Source of the DNA: Candidatus Melainabacteria bacterium
Lineage (GTDB): Bacteria > Actinomycetota > Actinomycetes > Mycobacteriales > Pseudonocardiaceae
Length of the DNA stretch: 64,000 bases
Assembly (NCBI GenBank): GCA_963702275.1
Contig: CAVPCF010000184.1
Coordinates: 55,548-119,547 of the forward strand
Reading direction: 5' to 3'
In this document: one piece after another, positions 6,682 through 49,206 of the stretch
How the letters are laid out: each line of letters starts with the position of its first letter
How positions within the stretch are numbered: the stretch's first letter is position 1
Made by a program: the position numbers and the translations under genes
The notes under the pieces: generated by a model
What the model saw: only the letters and a program-made list of their open reading frames with translations
Told to the model about the DNA's origin: nothing
Database searches by the model: none

Positions 6682-7368
6682 ATGGCGACCGAGTCCGAGG
6701 TGTCCCCGACGCAGGGTCGTCCGCTGCGCCGGCACGCCCAGCGCAACCGGGACGCCGTCCTGGCCGCGGCGCGGCTGGCGTTCACCCGGCACGGCCTGCA
6801 CGTGCCGCTGGAGTGGATCGCCAAGGACGCCGACGTCGGCATCGGCACGCTCTACCGCAACTTCCCGACCCGCAACGACCTGATCGAGGCCGTCGTCGCG
6901 GAGAAGCTCGTGGAGTGGATGGCCACCGCGGAACGCGCGGTCGAGTTCGCCGATCCGTGGGACGGTCTGGTCTTCTACCTCGAAGAGGTGTGCCACCGCC
7001 AGGCCGAGGACCGTGGCTTCATCGACATCGTGTCGATGCGGTTCCCGGATCTCACCGGCCTCGAGACAGAGCTACGCCGCATCCAGGAACTGTCCGACCA
7101 GGTCGTCACCAGGGCCAGGGACGCGGGCCAACTGCGGGCCGACGTCACGACCGAGGACCTGGCCCTGATCCTGTGGGGACATTCCAGGGTCGTCGAAGTC
7201 GCCCAGCCGGTCCGGCCGGACGTCTGGCGCCGCTACCTCGGCCTGCTGCTCGACTCGTTGCGCCCGGCGAACGCGCACCCGTTGCCGGTCCCGGCCCTTC
7301 GGCCGATCGAGGTGGCGGAAGCCATGGCCCTACAGGGAAAGCCGACCCACTCGACGGGCGCGCACTAG
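6682..7368 (+). CDS. TetR/AcrR family transcriptional regulator
   Basis: N-terminal HTH (RNRDAVLAAARLAFTRHG...IGTLYRNFPTRNDL). Divergent from the MMPL gene. Confidence 0.9.
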   Translation: MATESEVSPTQGRPLRRHAQRNRDAVLAAARLAFTRHGLHVPLEWIAKDADVGIGTLYRNFPTRNDLIEAVVAEKLVEWMATAERAVEFADPWDGLVFYLEEVCHRQAEDRGFIDIVSMRFPDLTGLETELRRIQELSDQVVTRARDAGQLRADVTTEDLALILWGHSRVVEVAQPVRPDVWRRYLGLLLDSLRPANAHPLPVPALRPIEVAEAMALQGKPTHSTGAH

Positions 7369-9593: not shown

Positions 9594-11420
9594 TCACCAG
9601 CCGACTGCTACCACCATGTACTGCGGGTTCTGGACGCCGATGTTCGAGGACTGTCCAGCGAAATCGTCGTACGGGAAGCCGTACTGCTTGGCGTTGATGG
9701 AATTCTGGTGCCAGAACTGGGCGTAGTAGTTCGCAGGCGCGGACTTGTAGTACTGGGTCGGGTCCGCCTGCTGCGCCGTGGTCAGCCCCGCGACGTGCCG
9801 GTTGAACGCGGCGCACAGCTGCGGATTGGCGGCCAGCGTGCCACCGCAGCCGAAGATCTGCGCCGTGGTGTCGCTGCTGTCGCCGTTGGCTGCCGCGTAG
9901 CCGGTCATGTAGTTCGCGAACTGGCCGCCCGGCTGGAACACCGGGTCGTTGCCCGGCGACGGGATGCCGAACGGCGCCTGGTCGGTCGCCAGCGACTTGA
10001 ACTCGGTCGGCACCGAGTTCTGGAACCGCTGGAACGTCGACGTCCTGCTTTCCTGGAAGGTGGCGAAGTTCTCGCCGATCTCCTGCTCCGAGCCGTCGTG
10101 GGCGTGCACGAGCATGGCCAGCTTGATGCCGAACCGGTCGACCCGGGTCGTGTCGACGTCGATGAACGACGCGCCGACGGTGAACTCGATGAAGTCGAAA
10201 TACTGGCCGTTGGGCGAGCCCAGGAAGAAGTTCATCCGGCCGGACGAGTTGGCCGGCATGTCGATGAACGGCTGTTGCGCGATCGATGCCGTCTGCCCGT
10301 TGAAGCTCCAGAAGACCTGGCTGTCGGGCCACTGGCCGTTCGTCTGGTTGATGATCTTGACTTCGAGGACGTTGTGCGCGGCCGGAATGGTGCTCACGTC
10401 ACCCCAGAACGACGCGGGCGGCGCGCCGGAGCCGGGCGGCGTGGTGACCGTGGTCGTCGGCCCGGTGGTGGTCGTGGGCGGCGGTGGCGAGCCACCGGTG
10501 GTGAAGATGCCGAACTCCCACAGCGAGTAGCCGAATGCCGTGCCGCGGGCGGTGCCGTTCATCCGGACGAAGCGGCCGGTGCCGGTCACGTTGAGCGTCT
10601 GGATGCCGCCGGTGCCGGTTGTGGTCGAGAAGATCGTGGTCCAGTTGACCGCGTCGGGCGATGTCTGGATCTGGAACGCGGTGGCGAACGCGGCTTCCCA
10701 GTTCAGCGAGACCTGGCAGACCGACTGCGTCGAGCCGAGGTCGACCTGGAGCCACTGCGGGTCGCTGAAGGCGCTGGACCACCGGGTGCCGGTGTTGCCG
10801 TCGGTGGCGGCGCTGGCCGGGAACGAGGCGTTCTCGGTGGAGGAGGCGGTCGTCGGTCGGTTGACCGCGACGTTGGTGGTGCCGCATCCTGCCGCGTTCA
10901 CCGAGCCGAACACCTGGAACTCCCACAGCGAGTAGCCGAATGCCGTGCCGCGGGCGGTGCCGTTCATCCGGACGAAGCGGCCGGTGCCGGTCACGTTGAG
11001 CGTCTGGACGCCGCCGGTCCCGGTGGTGGTCGAGAAGATGGTCGTCCAGTTCGCCGCGTCCTGGGACGTCTGAATCTGGAACGACTTGCCGAAGGCGGCC
11101 TCCCAGTTCAGCACCACCTGGCTGATGCTCGCGGACGAGCCGAGGTCGACCTGGATCCACTGTGGATCGCTGAAGGCGCTGGACCACCGGGTGCCGGTGT
11201 TGCCGTCGGTGGCGGCGCTGGCCGGGAACGTGGCGTTCTCGGTGGACGACGCGGTGGTCGGCTTGCCCTGCGACAGCAGGGTGGCGGCCGCGTGGGCGGC
11301 GGGCCCTGTGACGACGATGGTGTAGATGGCCACGCTGAGCACGACCAGTGTGGCCATCACCGTTGGCAGTGTTCGAGACAGTCTCCGTCGCGTCATTGCG
11401 TCGGAGGAGCGGACCTTCAT
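9594..11420 (-). CDS. secreted beta-1,3-glucanase-like protein (GH64-like catalytic region) with two F5/8 type C (discoidin/CBM32-like) domains
   Basis: Signal peptide ending AHAAA. Two ~135-aa discoidin-type modules (TDGNTGTRWSS...GYSLWEF) and a Pro/Thr linker. The C-terminal region (FGCGG...LCAAFNRH...YGFPYDDFAGQSS) resembles the laminaripentaose-producing GH64 fold as I recall it. GGAGAA RBS before ATG 11420. Confidence 0.7.
   Translation of the reverse strand: MKVRSSDAMTRRRLSRTLPTVMATLVVLSVAIYTIVVTGPAAHAAATLLSQGKPTTASSTENATFPASAATDGNTGTRWSSAFSDPQWIQVDLGSSASISQVVLNWEAAFGKSFQIQTSQDAANWTTIFSTTTGTGGVQTLNVTGTGRFVRMNGTARGTAFGYSLWEFQVFGSVNAAGCGTTNVAVNRPTTASSTENASFPASAATDGNTGTRWSSAFSDPQWLQVDLGSTQSVCQVSLNWEAAFATAFQIQTSPDAVNWTTIFSTTTGTGGIQTLNVTGTGRFVRMNGTARGTAFGYSLWEFGIFTTGGSPPPPTTTTGPTTTVTTPPGSGAPPASFWGDVSTIPAAHNVLEVKIINQTNGQWPDSQVFWSFNGQTASIAQQPFIDMPANSSGRMNFFLGSPNGQYFDFIEFTVGASFIDVDTTRVDRFGIKLAMLVHAHDGSEQEIGENFATFQESRTSTFQRFQNSVPTEFKSLATDQAPFGIPSPGNDPVFQPGGQFANYMTGYAAANGDSSDTTAQIFGCGGTLAANPQLCAAFNRHVAGLTTAQQADPTQYYKSAPANYYAQFWHQNSINAKQYGFPYDDFAGQSSNIGVQNPQYMVVAVGW
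10512..11270 (-). repeat. intragenic tandem duplication (405-bp period) encoding the two discoidin modules
   Basis: The string gaactcccacagcgagtagccgaatgccgtgccgcgggcggtgccgttcatccggacgaagcggccggtgccggtcacgttgagcgtctgga occurs at both 10512 and 10917. Similarity continues through both copies. Confidence 0.85.
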
Positions 11421-11483
11421 GGTTTCTCCAGCACGATTGCGGGCACGGGCGCGCGCCCTACGCCGGGGTTGCGCCAACGGCGG

Positions 11484-23651: not shown

Positions 23652-23816
23652 GTTGAAATGCTCTCAGGACGGTTTTGTCCTATTTAGAAGATTTGTCTTG
23701 TTGAGGCTGGGTACCCGTTCACCATGAGTCATCCGACCAGCGCCAACCCAATCCACGCCGCCGACCCCATGCAGACCAGCACGGACACCATCCGGGCGAC
23801 CACGGCCTCCATGCAC

Positions 23817-24148
23817 GCCAGCGCAGACCCCACAGGCCCCACCACCGATCCCACGCGCGCCAGCGCAGATCCCACAGGGCTGACCACGGATTCCCTGCGC
23901 GCCAGCGCAGATCCCACGGGGCCGGCCACCGATCCCACGCGCGCCAGCGCAGACCGCACGGGCCCGACCACGGATTCCGTGCGCGCCAGCACAGGCCGCA
24001 CAGGCCGGACGATCCCAGGCGCCAAGAGGCCAGGGGCCGGCCACCGATCCCACGCGCGCCAACGCAGGCCGCACCGGGCCGGCCACCGGCACAGGCCCCA
24101 CGGGCCTGACCACCGATCCCGCGTCGGCCTCCGATCCCGCGCCGGTCA
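23817..24148 (+). repeat. 42-bp tandem repeat array (4 regular units plus degenerate units)
   Basis: Units gccagcgcagaccccacaggccccaccaccgatcccacgcgc start at 23817, 23859, 23901 and 23943. Later units are degenerate, with lengths of about 38 and 35 nt. Confidence 0.9.
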
Positions 24149-24672
24149 GCGCGGACGTCGCGCGAGCCGAAGGTCCGAGCGTGGTCCGGAAGGGTCCGCG
24201 CGGGGCCGTCGCCGTCGTGGTGCTCGATCCCGCGGGCCACGCCAAGCACGGCGAACTGCCGGCGACCTGGCGGCCGCTGACCGAGGACGTCGAGGTGGTC
24301 TGGTGCCGGCTGCCGGCCGCGCCGCGCACCGGCCTGGACCCCCACCAACTGCTCCGCGAGCTCGCCGCGGACGGACGCCGACTGGTGTTGGTGTCGTACG
24401 GCGCCGCGGCGTTGTTGACGCTGTCGCTCGCGGTGTCGGAGCCCGATCACGTGCGCGGGGCCGTGCTGGTGAATCCGCCGTGGCCGGCCGGGGACCTGCC
24501 GGCGCTGCGGCTCGTGGTGAACCATCCGGACCTGATCCTTGGCCAGGTCGACGCGGAGTCGGCGACCTGGGCCGGGCCGGATCCGCTGCCGATCGGCCAT
24601 CCCGAGGTGGTGGGTGCGGTGGTGCGGATGCTGCTGACCATCGGTGTCGGCCTCGACGAGCCACCGCCTGCG

Positions 24673-24744
24673 CTGCCTGGTGCCGGCTCGCTGCCTGGTG
24701 CCGGCTCGCTGCCTGGTGCCGGCTCGTTGCCTGGTGCCGGCTCG
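24673..24744 (+). repeat. 18-bp tandem repeat x4 encoding (LPGAGS)4
   Basis: ctgcctggtgccggctcg repeated at 24673, 24691, 24709 and 24727. The fourth unit begins ttg. Confidence 0.9.
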
Positions 24745-25354
24745 CTGGCGCAGCATGCTTGGGATGCGGTGCGGGCGCGGCTGGTCGGGTTGCTGGAAAC
24801 GCTGAGTGGTGGTCGGGACGGCTGAGTGGAGTGGTGGTCGGGGAGGGCTGAGTGGTCGTCGGGAGGGGTTGCGTGGCGGTTGGGTGAGGTGCTGCGTGGC
24901 GGTGCGGAGAGCTGTGGTCGCAAGGGCATGGTGGCGGTCGCGAGCGGGGGGCTGTTTTGTTTTTTTCGCTCAACGAACGGGACCGGGTGGTTTGATCCCG
25001 GGTTCGGGGATGATCACCCGGTCGAGTGATCATTGGGTGGTCGTGCCGGGGACCGGGCGGTCCGACGGTACGGGTTGATCATATGCCGGCGCCGGCGAGT
25101 TGGCATGTCCTGCAACGGTTTGCTCGCTACGAGCGCGCTGGTGGGTGCGATGCTGATTGTCGTCGCGATCCGGGTCGGGCTGGTCGCGTTGGCTGCGGCG
25201 ATCGTGATCGGGTTCGCTGTTCGTGTTGTCCGGCCTGCTGAATCTGATCGTGCAACGCACGGGACGATCGACTACCTGGCCTTCGCGATCCGGACGTCAT
25301 CTGAGCCTGGTGGTTGGGATCGCCTTGCTGTTCATCGGATTCTACGGGTGCCGG

Positions 25355-29154: not shown

Positions 29155-29284
29155 GAGGTCGGGTCTACGCCGCGCCCGATGCGCTGTCCATCCTCCCTAA
29201 GTACGAACTATTTGCCACGTCATCCCAGGTCCGTTGCCATTCGCCCAAACCCACCCACGATGGGGGGTCCGGCAGGACGCCGGC

Positions 29285-29440
29285 AAAGTTGGCTTGGCGG
29301 TTGTCAAGGCCCTCGCCCACATGTGCACAACTTTTCGAGTTGCCCACAGATTGCCATAGGGCCACCCATTTAGGGCTTGACAGGCATAGGGTTGAAAAGG
29401 GCCGAAGCCCCCAGGGTTGGGCGGGGGTCTGTCCGCCCGG
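29285..29440 (+). repeat. copy A of a ~140-nt conserved intergenic element (partner at 48560-48699, opposite strand)
   Basis: Shared blocks TGTCAA, CGCCCACAT/CCGCCACAT, CCACA..TTGCCA, GGGCTTGACA, AAAAGGGCCG[A/T]AGCCCCC and GGGTTGGGCGGGGGTCTGT, in the same order and spacing. Confidence 0.75.
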
Positions 29441-29726
29441 TCTGTGGAATCGCGGCTCGGAACTTGGTCGCTTTGCTGGGATTAGTGGTGGGTCGTTGAC
29501 CTTGCCAGAGACGGGTGCAAGGTCCGGCAAAGTCGCATAACGGCTGGTTGGAGGGCCTCTAAGTGCCTCTTCGTCGAATCGGCTGATCCTCCATTGAGGA
29601 GGGTTGGTTGGGCAGGTGCGAGGGATCTCTGCGCCGGGCCTGGTTGGAAGCGGCGCCGATCACCAGGGCAGATCGTGCTCATTAGCCGTCTGATCTGTGG
29701 AAGCACGACCTTGCCGAGGCTCTGGA

Positions 29727-29967
29727 GGCCCGGGGGCGAAGCCCCGCTGGCTAGGGGGCTTGGCTCCCAGAGGGCACGGACAACGAATCCGGGCGAGCCC
29801 GCGCCAGCGGGCGAACACGGCTAGCCAATGAGGAGGGGGGTCCGGGGGCGAAGCCCCGCCGGCCGGGGGTCTGGGGGCTTGGCCCCGGGCTTGGCCCCCA
29901 GAGGGCACCGGCGACGAATCTCGGCGAGCCCGCGCCAGCGGGTGAGCAGGGGTCGCCCAATGAGGAG
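29727..29967. repeat. two tandem direct repeats (109 and 130 bp) rich in GC hairpins
   Basis: Both units run GG[C/T]CCGGGGGCGAAGCCCCG ... CCCAGAGGGCAC..GACGAATC..GGCGAGCCCGCGCCAGCGGG ... CCAATGAGGAG. They lie immediately 3' of the ABC-2 permease gene. Confidence 0.8.
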
Positions 29968-29972
29968 TGACG

Positions 29973-46306: not shown

Positions 46307-47668
46307 ATGGACGAACGGGAACGTCGAGAGGCCAGGGAGCGCGCACGTGGCGTGGTCGCCGACCTGGCGACGCGCGGGGTGCACGCGGTCGCGGTCACCT
46401 GGGTGGACAACAGTGGGATCACCCGGATGAAGGCGGTGCCGAGGACCAGGGTCGCCGCGGCAGCGGCGTGGGGGATCGGTGCGTCGCCGTGTTTCGATAC
46501 GTTCCTGTTCAACGACGTGCCGGTCACGTCGGGCGCCGTCGGCGACCTGCGGCTGCACCCGGACCTGGCCCGCGTGACGGTCCTGGCAGGCCAACCCGGC
46601 TGGGCGTGGGCCCCCGCCGACCGCTACGACCTCGACGGCCGCCCACACCCGGTCGACCAGCGCATCCTCGCGCGCACCGCGACGGACCGCCTGGCGGCAC
46701 AGGGTTTCACGGCCAAGGTCGCGTTCGAGGTGGAGTGGGTGATCGGCGAGGACACCGATGCCTTCCATCCGGCCGTGCGCGGCCCCGGCTACGGTTTCGC
46801 CCGGCTGGTCGAGCGCTCGGACTACGTGCGGGACCTGGTCGTGGCGTTCGCCGAGCAGGGTGTCGAGGTCGACCAGATCCACCCGGAGTACAGCCCCGGC
46901 CAGTTCGAGGTGTCGGTTGCCGCGGCCGACCCGGTGCGCGCGGCTGACGACTACGTCCTGGTGCGGGAGACGATCAGGGCGATCAGCGCGCGGCACGGGC
47001 TGCGACCGTCGTTCTCCCCGAAGGTCCTCGCCGAAGGTGTCGGCAACGGTGGCCACGTGCACCTGAGCCTGTGGCGCGACGACACCAACCTGTTCGCCGG
47101 CGGCGACGGCCCGTGTGCCATGACGACGACGGCCTCGTCGTTCACGGCCGGCATCCTCGATCGATTGCCGGCGCTGCTGGCGATCGGGGCGCCGTCGGTG
47201 GTCAGTTACCTGAGGCTGGTTCCGCAGCACTGGGCCGGCGCGTTCGCCGTGTGGGGCCCGGAAAATCGCGAAGCGGCCTTGCGTCTGGTGACCGGTCCGG
47301 CCGGCAACCGTTCGTCGTCGGCGAATCTCGAGGTGAAGTGCTTCGATCAGACGGCGAATCCGTATCTGGTGGTCGCCGCTCTGATCTTCGCCGGTCTGGC
47401 CGGCATCGCCGAACGGGCACAGCTACCCGAACCGGTCGACGTCGACCCGGCGTTGTTGGCCGAGGACGAGCGAAATCGGCGTGGCATTCGCCGGCTGCCT
47501 ACTTCCCTGGCGTTGTCGACCGACGCGTTCGAGGCCGATTCGGTCCTGACAGCCGACTTCGGGCCCGAACGCACGGCGGCGATCGTCGCGGTGCGGCGCG
47601 GCGAGATCGCGCATTTTGCCGACGCCACACCGGAAGAGATCACCGAGCAACTCAGGTGGGTGCACTGA
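46307..47668 (+). CDS. glutamine synthetase family protein (GlnA-like gamma-glutamyl ligase)
   Basis: GS catalytic motifs (HPEYSPGQFEVS, NGGHVHLSLW). Divergent from the permease-amidohydrolase pair. Confidence 0.85.
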   Translation: MDERERREARERARGVVADLATRGVHAVAVTWVDNSGITRMKAVPRTRVAAAAAWGIGASPCFDTFLFNDVPVTSGAVGDLRLHPDLARVTVLAGQPGWAWAPADRYDLDGRPHPVDQRILARTATDRLAAQGFTAKVAFEVEWVIGEDTDAFHPAVRGPGYGFARLVERSDYVRDLVVAFAEQGVEVDQIHPEYSPGQFEVSVAAADPVRAADDYVLVRETIRAISARHGLRPSFSPKVLAEGVGNGGHVHLSLWRDDTNLFAGGDGPCAMTTTASSFTAGILDRLPALLAIGAPSVVSYLRLVPQHWAGAFAVWGPENREAALRLVTGPAGNRSSSANLEVKCFDQTANPYLVVAALIFAGLAGIAERAQLPEPVDVDPALLAEDERNRRGIRRLPTSLALSTDAFEADSVLTADFGPERTAAIVAVRRGEIAHFADATPEEITEQLRWVH

Positions 47669-47747
47669 GGCGTCGTGTTGTTCACGCCGCCGCAGGCTCC
47701 TCAGGGCTGTCTCCGAATTCCCTGGGCTGGGTCTGTCCCTTTGGTGT

Positions 47748-47955
47748 GGTGGGCGTCTTGCTGTTCGGTGTTTGGCTGGTCCGCACGCTGTGGGCTTCTG
47801 CATCACCCCGATACTCGATTGTCGTGACGGTTGGTGGGGTTTGTCAAGGCGGGAAAGAGTACCTTGACAAACCCCACCAACCGCTTTAACAGAGGGCCCG
47901 TATCGGGGTGATGCAGAAGGACTGGGCAAACAACGGAATGCCGCGTTGTTGAGGC
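47748..47955. repeat. left arm of a 208-bp near-perfect inverted repeat
   Basis: Reverse complement of 48344-48551 with 2 mismatches by manual alignment (ctttaacagag vs ctttcaaagag). Contains the internal extended hairpin 47795-47919. Confidence 0.9.
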
Positions 47956-47974
47956 CGGTCCCATCGAAGCTAAA

Positions 47975-48343
47975 TGACGCCCCGGTGGGGGAGGCCACTC
48001 TGGTTCGTCCGGCGAGCCCGGTCTGTGGGTGGTCGCCAGCGCCTCGGTGGGGAGCCTGCCCTTGTTGGTCCGGCGGGTCGCGTTCGCTCGGCGAGTCGTG
48101 GCAGGCCTGGCCTGGGCACCAGCACCAGTAATCACTGCCGGGGGACCACCTCCGAACGGAACCCGCCGGACGAACACCAGCGGACTCCCCACCGAGGCGT
48201 CAGCGACCACCACCGACAACGCGACCCGCCGGATGAACGACAGTAGGCTCCCACCGAGGCGCCAGCGACCACGACCACAACGGGACCCGCCGGACGAACA
48301 AGAGCAGCTCCCAACCGAGGCGCTCTCTCCGTTTCCGGCCCTA
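47975..48343. repeat. head-to-head arrays of 61-63-nt units forming the palindrome core
   Basis: The CCCGCCGG anchor occurs at 48162, 48225 and 48286 on the plus strand (spacings 63 and 61). The complementary CCGGCG anchors occur at 48009 and 48070 (spacing 61), with a partial unit at 48087. Confidence 0.8.
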
Positions 48344-48551
48344 GCCTCAACAACGCGGCATTCCGTTGTTTGCCCAGTCCTTCTGCATCACCCCGATACG
48401 GGCCCTCTTTGAAAGCGGTTGGTGGGGTTTGTCAAGGTACTCTTTCCCGCCTTGACAAACCCCACCAACCGTCACGACAATCGAGTATCGGGGTGATGCA
48501 GAAGCCCACAGCGTGCGGACCAGCCAAACACCGAACAGCAAGACGCCCACC
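48344..48551. repeat. right arm of the 208-bp inverted repeat
   Basis: See the left arm. Contains the mirrored hairpin module 48380-48504. Confidence 0.9.
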
Positions 48552-48559
48552 CCCAAAGA

Positions 48560-48699
48560 ACAGACCCCCGCCCAACCCAGGGGGGCTACGGCCCTTTTCC
48601 AATCTACCGTTGTCAAGCCCCGAATGGGGGACCTACTGGCAAGTTGTGGATTGAACGGCCGTTATCCACAGATGTGGCGGACGGGGTTGACAGCCGGAG
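48560..48699 (-). repeat. copy B of the ~140-nt conserved element (partner 29285-29440)
   Basis: Its reverse complement aligns block by block with 29285-29440. It is contiguous with the right palindrome arm and starts right after the stop of the 168-aa ORF. Confidence 0.75.
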
Positions 48700-49206
48700 T
48701 CAGCTGGGCCACGTCCACGTGCCGTCGCCCATGACGACCACGTTCTTCTGCTGCCGCCACGAGACGGCCTGCCCGAACATGTAGTCCAGCGTGATCGACA
48801 TGGTGAGCGGCATGCCGGCGATCACGTCGTCGTCCGTGCCGAACTTGTTGCCGTGGGTGGGGAAGTTGGCCTGAACGTCCACCGTGAAGTCGATCGGCAG
48901 GTAGCCGACCTCGAGTGTCGCGGTGATCTGGTCGATGTAGTGGCCGTGGCCGTCCTTGTGGACGCCCCACAGCCAGCTCACGCCGACGGTGAAATCGAAG
49001 TCCGCGTTGAGGAAGTCGTACCAGTCGCTGCTCTGCTTCCACTTCTTGCTGACCTGCTTGAAGGTGCCGCCGGACGAGCCGTTTCCGTCGTAACCCATCG
49101 GGAAACCGTTGGCGTAGCCGCCTTGTACGGTCTGCACACCCGCATGGTTGGCCAGCAGGTGGATGATTGCCACACCGCTGTTGACGATGTCCGCTACCTC
49201 ACCCAT
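48700..49206 (-). CDS. hypothetical protein (168 aa), no family recognised
   Basis: Clean ORF with a GGAGG RBS 5 nt before ATG 49206, located inside the end of the upstream small ORF. Beta-rich, with W/D/G-rich composition. Confidence 0.65.
   Translation of the reverse strand: MGEVADIVNSGVAIIHLLANHAGVQTVQGGYANGFPMGYDGNGSSGGTFKQVSKKWKQSSDWYDFLNADFDFTVGVSWLWGVHKDGHGHYIDQITATLEVGYLPIDFTVDVQANFPTHGNKFGTDDDVIAGMPLTMSITLDYMFGQAVSWRQQKNVVVMGDGTWTWPS

Follow-up and report, generated by a model that had tools for sequence, protein, structure and literature searches.

What fills a gap of 1,031 bp between two genes on opposite strands, and why are the arms of the long palindrome inside it almost identical? 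The gap lies in a 64-kb window (the whole stretch of DNA analysed here, 64,000 nucleotides of contig CAVPCF010000184.1), where it runs from the stop codon of a glutamine-synthetase-like (GS-like) gene at 47668 to that of a 168-aa gene on the opposite strand at 48700. It is made up of two parts, a dispersed module of ~150 bp and a composite palindromic element. The element probably (about 0.6) belongs to a hitherto undescribed family of composite palindromic repeats without coding capacity, 0.6-1 kb in length, from uncultured soil Pseudonocardiaceae, which would act as folded DNA; in the window copy, one arm was recently copied over the other, presumably by gene conversion.

Composition of the gap and copies at other loci

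The two arms of the element are 208 nt each, stand 388 nt apart and are complementary at 206/208 positions (99%); the only mismatches (47888/48411 and 47890/48409) both fall where the hairpin within the arm has an internal loop that is unpaired. With gapped BLAST, self-complementarity extended from ~47729 to ~48567 (81.8% over 859 nt), weaker and gapped outside the arms, and the core was 69-82% self-complementary when gaps were allowed. The complementarity beyond the arms is due to a degenerate inverted copy of the module end (Table 1). No other long repeat of the palindromic kind was found in the 64-kb window. When folded as RNA, a 901-nt stretch reached -748.6 kcal/mol, compared with -376 +/- 8 kcal/mol for shuffles (z = -46).

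A first-pass annotation, made from the letters alone, had described a palindrome of ~860 bp with a roughly self-complementary core and weaker outward complementarity, set in a gene-free gap of ~1 kb, and each of these features was recovered. The module had not been separated from the palindrome in that annotation, and the gap therefore holds a second repeat besides the one described; the "168-aa orphan open reading frame (ORF)" at its border is a conserved gene with 24 homologues (52-98% identity), mostly from soil metagenomes and some from named Pseudonocardiaceae metagenome-assembled genomes (MAGs). That the palindrome is non-coding and contains no transposase was confirmed: no ORF was kept in frame across the gap among relatives, no frame can persist through units that recur every 60-63 bp, and a coding hypothesis was rejected because ORFs in the arms and units shift frame between relatives.

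The core consists of two inverted arrays of ~61-bp units around a centre, with the conserved boxes GCGCCTCGGTGGG and GTTCGTCCGGCGGGT. The units are alike over their whole length (81% matches), which agrees with the initial remark that spacer-like unique segments are lacking, and a CRISPR array was ruled out by the absence of unique spacers between them. Unit counts were 2+3 in the window, about 2+3 in L036, 1+2 in L037 and 3 in L035.

Table 1. Positions of the parts of the gap, of related copies and of module copies (window coordinates unless a contig is named)
Feature	Position	Strand	Remarks
GS-side tail of the filler	47669..47747	.	57% identical to L046 here
Degenerate inverted module-end copy (CCCTGGGCT..GGGTCTGTCCCTTTGG)	47703-47747		within GS-side tail; from alignments
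GS-side arm, type A	47748..47955	+	from outside to centre: outer region 47748-47794, hairpin 47795-47919, inner arm 47920-47955
GS-side arm hairpin	47795..47919	.	outer stem 47795-47814/47900-47919 (20 bp); inner stem 47828-47849/47862-47883 (22 bp); apical loop 47850-47861, CGGGAAAGAGTA (12 nt); asymmetric internal loops 13 and 16 nt; DNA fold -51.3 kcal/mol, z = -13.1; covariation
Outward promoter-like site, TTGACA-N18-GACAAT	47818..47847	-	-35 in inner stem, -10 in internal loop
Core	47956..48343	.	inverted arrays of ~61-bp units and centre
GS-side core units, two, ~61 bp	47971-48028, 48033-48088		opposite orientation to the other array
Core centre	~48089-48150
Three tandem ~61-bp units	48151-48329		inverted relative to the GS-side pair; period 61, 2.9 copies
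Module-side arm, now type A	48344..48551	-	206/208 inverted copy of GS-side arm
Module-side arm hairpin	48380..48504	.	stems 48380-48399/48485-48504 and 48416-48437/48450-48471; -52.1 kcal/mol, z = -13.0
Outward promoter-like site, TTGACA-N18-GACAAT	48452..48481	+	consensus scan
Module (separate dispersed repeat, ~150 bp)	48553..48710	-	adjoins module-side arm
Second module copy	29282-29437	+	about 80% identical to 48553-48710
Module copies elsewhere	L030 6099-6255; L032 4980-5132; L033 2255-2416; L035 3525-3677; L045-L048
Element copy	L036 7880-8692		between convergent FAD-monooxygenase gene and 207-aa gene
Partial copy	L036 4-81		5 nt past metallophosphoesterase gene stop
Element copy	L037		beside 3' end of another gene
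Further copy	P0025		known from its ORF only
Element copy	L035		module, one arm and three units, 42-nt hairpin at end; found by metagenome scan for module end

Copies at other loci were sought by using spurious ORFs that run across an arm or units as baits against 5.8 billion or 1.84 billion proteins. Three baits gave 2, 1 and 2 matches, the ORF of L035 being the one that gave nearly nothing, and P0025, P0026 and P0028 are spurious ORFs generated by elements. Two copies lie within 8 kb in L036, and all seven readable flanks are gene 3' ends, with the elements placed directly after stop codons and typically between convergent genes. At an unrelated locus, L037 has an arm hairpin with 100% identity to the module-side one of the window; this identity holds over a 137-nt hairpin core, and the adjoining segments are 65-90% identical.

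The arms thus belong to a dispersed family present at a minimum of four unrelated loci. The initial proposal that arms matching a catalogued, many-copy insertion sequence (IS) or MITE (miniature inverted-repeat transposable element) would reduce the palindrome to a trivial nested insertion was right as to dispersal, but the family is uncatalogued and apparently rare, and a trivial nested insertion is not what was found. A search of 185,579 representative genomes with the 20-mer GTTGGTGGGGTTTGTCAAGG, which represents type-A arms only, returned two chance matches, both in Actinacidiphila. The contig L035 (1-4966) was considered as a natural 5-kb palindrome, or as a case of hypervariability, and was rejected as either: it folds back around ~2487, inside a P450-like gene, and identity between its two halves is an even ~95%, broken here and there by small indels, as in a noisy chimera, and it was counted as one copy.

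Conserved arm hairpins and the origin of the identical arms

Conservation in the family concerns the hairpin within each arm and does not extend to the long pairing of one arm with the other. Within single elements the arms match each other at 84% over 80 nt (L046), 92% over 119 nt (L042) and 76% over 115 nt (L036), compared with 98.3% over 230 nt in the window. The idea that the ~860-bp palindrome, or the long pairing of its arms, is itself the conserved or selected unit was not supported; what is kept and compensated among the relatives is an arm-internal hairpin of ~125 nt. The building block of the family is a two-tier hairpin of ~125-135 nt, and DNA folds of six arm variants gave -50 to -54 kcal/mol (z = -13 to -16.4).

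Covariation was assessed on 11 arms of at least four sequence types (42 pairs, 441 cells), and a smaller set was analysed too. Standard pairing was present in 98% of the pair cells, double-sided changes were found at 16/42 pairs (38 cells), and only 2/441 cells were G-U. The observed covariation was reached in 0/500 shuffles, and slid registers paired at only 37-47%. Invariant in the arms are the apex TTTGTCAAGG-CGGGAAAGA.T.-CCTTGACAAA together with its asymmetric loop, the stem top CCCCGAT/ATCGGGG and ATTGT in one internal loop; the remaining stem positions co-vary as strict Watson-Crick pairs.

The orthologous site, between the GS-like gene and the 168-aa gene, is filled in some relatives and empty in others, all of them metagenome assemblies. 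Stop-to-stop spacing is 15 nt in L003-L006 and 4 nt in L007 (83-85% nucleotide identity in the 168-aa gene) and 11 nt in L044 and L049-L052 (92% identity). The L038-L043 clade (89-90% identity) carries the element right after the stop codon and without the module (621 bp in L038), and the window clade L045-L048 (95% identity) carries both module and element. Filled gaps span 621-1,031 nt among the window, L038, L042, L045 and L046, and L046 has the complete set of parts in the same order as the window (1,026 vs 1,031 bp). The gene identities give roughly the order ((window clade, empty clade), L038 clade), and therefore either an independent gain in two clades or a clean loss in one.

Comparison of the window with L046 and L047 accounts for the near identity of the arms. 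In L046 the GS-side arm is of type A, 92.6% identical to the GS-side arm of the window, and the module-side arm is of type B, similar to that of L035; in L047 a type-B arm begins after the module, and L035 has the module followed by type B at another locus. Relative to these, the window is the only one with type A, the GS-side type, on both sides. Between the window and L046, identity is 91% in the module, 91% in the GS-side arm hairpin, 92% in the GS-side inner arm and 94% and 84% in the flanking genes, compared with 69% in the module-side outer region, 69% in the module-side arm hairpin and 55% in the module-side inner arm.

On this alignment evidence, the ancestral type-B arm has been replaced, in the window lineage only, by an inverted type-A copy of ~208 bp. 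The 99% identity of the arms is explained by recent copying of one arm over the other, and the homogenisation of arms that the first-pass annotation had suggested was substantiated, as an event of one lineage and not as a property of the family. The copying is most simply seen as a recent intra-element gene conversion, a mechanism that we infer from the arm types. The inverted module-end patch at 47703-47747 is unique to the window and is absent at that position from L046 and L045; it implies either that copying occurred a second time, the opposite way round, or that a single complex template switch took place.

Other relatives show losses at the arm hairpins. Comparison with its close relative L042 (1411-1505), where the arm is intact, showed that in L038 (~7028-7054) one arm lacks precisely the inside of its hairpin; the junction reads CTTCTGCATCACCCCGAT followed by GCAGAAG, with a GAT direct repeat, and the loss looks like a palindrome-stimulated deletion. 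The module-side arm and the adjacent units are lost in L045 and L048, which have kept the type-B outer region. Six independent metagenome contigs stop in or beside an arm hairpin (the ends of L039, L040, L041, L043 and L048, and the start of L036, at 4-81). A single locus provides a tractable natural series of an empty site, a full element, an arm deletion, the excision of a hairpin interior and an overwritten arm, and shows how long DNA hairpins stay perfect, vanish or become homogenised in a high-GC genome.

At the empty sites of L044 (6508-6518), L049 (1176-1186) and L050-L052, the 11-nt spacer contains GCTGTCA(A/G), which matches the first box of the module and is missing where the outgroups (L003, L007) have empty sites; this motif could be what a lost element left behind, or it could have served as a target. 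The pair GGCTGTC...GACAGCC was considered as terminal inverted repeats and dropped, since its left member is a native spacer or module box that empty sites have too, and its right member is part of the degenerate module-end patch. The comparison did not establish that the element evolves faster than its flanks (window-L038 identity 76% in the element and 78.5% in the 3' end of the GS gene).

Interpretation of the element and its alternatives

By analogy, the element is best read as a previously undescribed but real variant of the REPIN-, BOX- or MITE-like intergenic palindromic repeats. In the proposed scheme, two inverted hairpin arms bracket the inverted arrays of ~61-bp units, the arms would fold as hairpins in single-stranded or supercoiled DNA, and a protein acting in trans would read the folded arms, so that the element could spread or persist in the manner of the non-autonomous REPIN, BOX or MITE-type repeats. 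In the window lineage, the type-A GS-side arm was copied, inverted, over the ancestral type-B module-side arm. Signs that the hairpins matter as DNA are the Watson-Crick compensation, the exact loss of a hairpin interior in L038, the arm losses in L045 and L048, and the six contig breaks. The compensation and the invariant asymmetric apex predict a protein that reads folded DNA, the discovery of which would lead to a new mobilisation system or host function.

Searches of databases gave no name for the element, as had been the impression from its sequence at the outset. The whole window had no Rfam match at the gathering threshold, permissive local searches (E <= 10) returned generic hairpin noise (MIR820 at 32.8 bits vs a cutoff of 196 bits), and no tRNA or tmRNA was found in the window. 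The whole element had no blastn match among plasmids (PLSDB) or phages (INPHARED), viral scans with four patterns returned nothing or unrelated back-to-back phage promoters, and literature searches returned neither a description matching the element nor a like repeat in actinomycetes.

REPINs flank a single-copy RAYT gene, which encodes an IS200-like Y1 transposase, and occur in tens to hundreds of copies per genome with an over-represented short palindromic seed. Their definition is two conserved inverted segments and a spacer that form a hairpin, with compensatory changes across the spacer (PMC3116915), and each arm of the element has this structure, with 16/42 pairs compensatory and 98% of cells paired. 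Further likenesses are the covariation expected of a single-stranded DNA (ssDNA) hairpin and an extragenic, non-coding and dispersed character with turnover within the genome (PMC3116915). The element differs in its apparently low copy number and in that no RAYT or other Y1 transposase was seen in the examined contigs (no PF01797-type gene was found in their gene tables, nor among ~35 window ORFs scanned against Pfam). It differs also in that its most invariant part is the apex with the asymmetric loop and not only REP-like ends, in its size of 0.6-1 kb, in its added inverted 61-bp unit arrays, and in its actinomycete host.

BOX elements (boxA-boxB(n)-boxC) have ends that pair, carry variable tandem units and lie near 3' ends or between convergent genes (PMC3049150). 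The element shares with BOX of Streptococcus, and with the boxE/F variants of S. suis, the pairing end modules, the variable tandem units, the non-coding character, the enrichment near 3' ends or between convergent genes and the clustering with other repeat families (PMC3049150). This correspondence with the BOX-type architecture is an analogy only, with no sequence homology, and does not amount to membership; the units of the element stand in two inverted arrays around a centre, each end has a long perfect two-tier hairpin, and the whole is several-fold larger. MITEs and eukaryotic Foldback elements are likewise non-autonomous, with inverted ends and insertion polymorphism, and the long arms with tandem sub-repeats are Foldback-like; however, neither a target-site duplication nor a matching autonomous IS was found, and the arms are not simple terminal inverted repeats, most copies having two arm sequence types.

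Several observations weigh against the proposed reading. None of the contigs examined yielded a transposase, Rep or relaxase that could be its partner, and the only candidate in the window, a DDE transposase gene, has no likeness to the ends of the element and thus does not share inverted repeats with it as an autonomous IS would with its MITE. The element seems to have few copies (a single one in the 64 kb here, and few relatives in the protein baits), unlike classical REPINs or MITEs. When filled and empty sites were compared, no clear target-site duplication was seen, with flanks too short and too diverged to fix the junctions. That two clades are filled and one is empty at the same 11-nt spacer would also follow from vertical inheritance and loss without mobility. 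The relatives all come from metagenomes, and one of them, L035, is a foldback chimera. Finally, a function in RNA, or as a terminator or insulator useful to the host, stands as an alternative.

The best-surviving alternative, though an unlikely one, is that the hairpins are active as ssDNA, each arm being a single-strand-origin (sso) or ssDNA-promoter signal in which a duplex -35 and a pre-melted -10 would let RNA polymerase or primase start; the opposite arms would provide one signal per strand, and the element would be a remnant or rider of a rolling-circle, conjugative or ssDNA-transposing system. A consensus scan found 2 promoter-like sites vs 0.1 expected by chance, one in each arm and both facing outward. 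The perfectly paired inner stem contains TTGACA and the unpaired loop a conserved nACAAT (A2 and T6 kept), and every arm type has the hexamers (GACAAT, AACAAT, CACAAT, TACAAT and TACGAT). Signals of this class are defined by their promoting second-strand synthesis or early transcription in one orientation only, on elements that go through an ssDNA stage (PMC4595007). The Watson-Crick-only compensation and the invariant asymmetric apical loop fit such a signal, and an imperfect ssDNA hairpin that holds -35-like and -10-like hexamers corresponds to the published descriptions of Frpo (PMC11541004) and sso (PMC4595007). The arm apex GTCAAGGCGGGAAAGAGTACCTTGACA furthermore recurs with 27/27 nt identity (E = 5e-5) in a 6-kb Bacillus cereus plasmid, pMRY14-0075_3 (AP022897.1, 4258-4284; L053, 3001-3027), where it forms the tip of an imperfect hairpin of greater size; this hairpin occupies a GC-richer non-coding island, and the plasmid carries a weak RepL-like protein.

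The promoter reading is weakened, however, by the spacing of the hexamers, which drifts from 18 to 20 nt instead of being fixed at ~17 nt. The plasmid hairpin is neither an annotated nor a recurrent sso and its region is unique in PLSDB, a verbatim literature search for the apex motif returned nothing, and the viral scans were empty. The element lies among syntenic chromosomal genes of core type (GS-like, amino-acid permease, TetR and type III polyketide synthase), with no Rep, relaxase or primase nearby, which does not agree with residence in a rolling-circle replicon, an integrative and conjugative element or a conjugative leading region. Pairing in the arms is also much closer to perfect than in the sso or Frpo structures that are known.

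The 27-nt identity hints at a signal used across phyla. A doubtful but far-reaching extension would make the arm hairpin a portable module read as ssDNA (a priming signal, an ssDNA promoter or an HUH/Y1-type recognition hairpin) that is common to phyla, and the chromosomal elements a new actinobacterial non-autonomous class that bears this signal on both strands and propagates or is repaired through folded ssDNA. If true, it would explain both the Watson-Crick-only compensation and the arm-to-arm copying.

Less likely again is an element that works in RNA. Read-through of the convergent genes would yield 3'-end stabilisers or terminators that lack a U tract, or the promoter-like sites would yield outward short or antisense RNAs, one of which would end at the UNCG hairpin and U tract of the module. 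This agrees with the location right after stop codons between convergent genes, with the great stability of the hairpins, with the outward direction of the promoter-like sites, and with the sequence GGGC-UACG/UUCG-GCCC-UUUUC on the reverse strand of the module, downstream of the arm promoter, in the window and L035. REP, BOX and SPRITE repeats have been credited with such roles at 3' ends or in RNA (PMC3049150). The arm hairpins, however, are not followed by a U tract and had no Rfam match even at permissive thresholds, and the close relatives L044 and L049-L052 manage without the element. RNA helices normally tolerate G-U pairs, yet only 2 of the 441 cells were G-U against 38 cells with double Watson-Crick changes.

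An assembly artefact, in which the palindrome or the identity of its arms would stem from a foldback or from an inverted duplication that was mis-polished, is very improbable. Related metagenome contigs do break at the arms and L035 is a foldback over its whole length, but the flanks in the window are distinct and syntenic, the core is asymmetric (2 vs 3 units) and diverged, and the arms differ at two positions. L046, which was independently assembled, has the same parts in the same order and of near-equal length, and arm types A and B are too unlike (about 69%, with many gaps) to be interconverted by polishing. Least credible of all is an invertible switch in which RecA or an invertase would flip the 388-bp core between the 208-bp arms: identical inverted repeats of such length are inversion substrates and the asymmetric core would give differing isomers, but the core contains no promoter-like site (both lie in the arms, unaffected by flipping), no recombinase lies nearby, the core has the same orientation in the window and L046, and relatives lack identical arms, so that switching is not the function of the family.

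Proteobacteria and streptococci have intergenic palindromic repeats that have been studied well. In Pseudonocardiaceae MAGs, short-read assemblies are broken up by the elements, which also give rise to foldback chimeras and to spurious ORFs.

The module and other repeats in the window

The module that adjoins the element contains a TGTCAA box, CTTGACA-N4-TAGATT (general form CTTGACA-N4-TAnnnT), a GGGCCGTAGCCC hairpin, the invariant GGGTTGGGCGGGGGTCTGT and two DnaA-box-like motifs, TTATCCACA and CAATCCACA (general form TT(A/G)TCCACAG). Its hairpin has the form GGGCCG(A/T)AGCCC, which on the reverse strand gives a UNCG tetraloop and a U tract. The neighbours of the module differ at each locus, and in L032 it lies ~100 nt upstream of a proA-like gene. 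When metagenomes were scanned with a 19-mer of the module, 6/10 matches were due to chance.

The second module copy in the window, at 29 kb, is followed by a repeat-rich non-coding stretch (29433-29972) between genes for an ABC-2 permease and an M28 peptidase. Within this stretch lies a tandem duplication of ~112-131 bp (29724-29957) full of GC hairpins, and the orthologue in L033 diverges completely downstream of about 29509.

The DDE transposase gene (PF13701/PF01609; 21702-23186, minus strand) is the only IS in the window and adjoins a 42-bp array (5 copies, 23797-24010) and an 18-bp array (4.3 copies, 24671-24747). A direct repeat of 300 bp with 89% identity (10512-10811 and 10917-11216), inside the gene at 9594-11477, is an ordinary domain duplication, the gene product being a beta-1,3-glucanase-like protein whose two F5/8 type C domains are encoded by the repeat.

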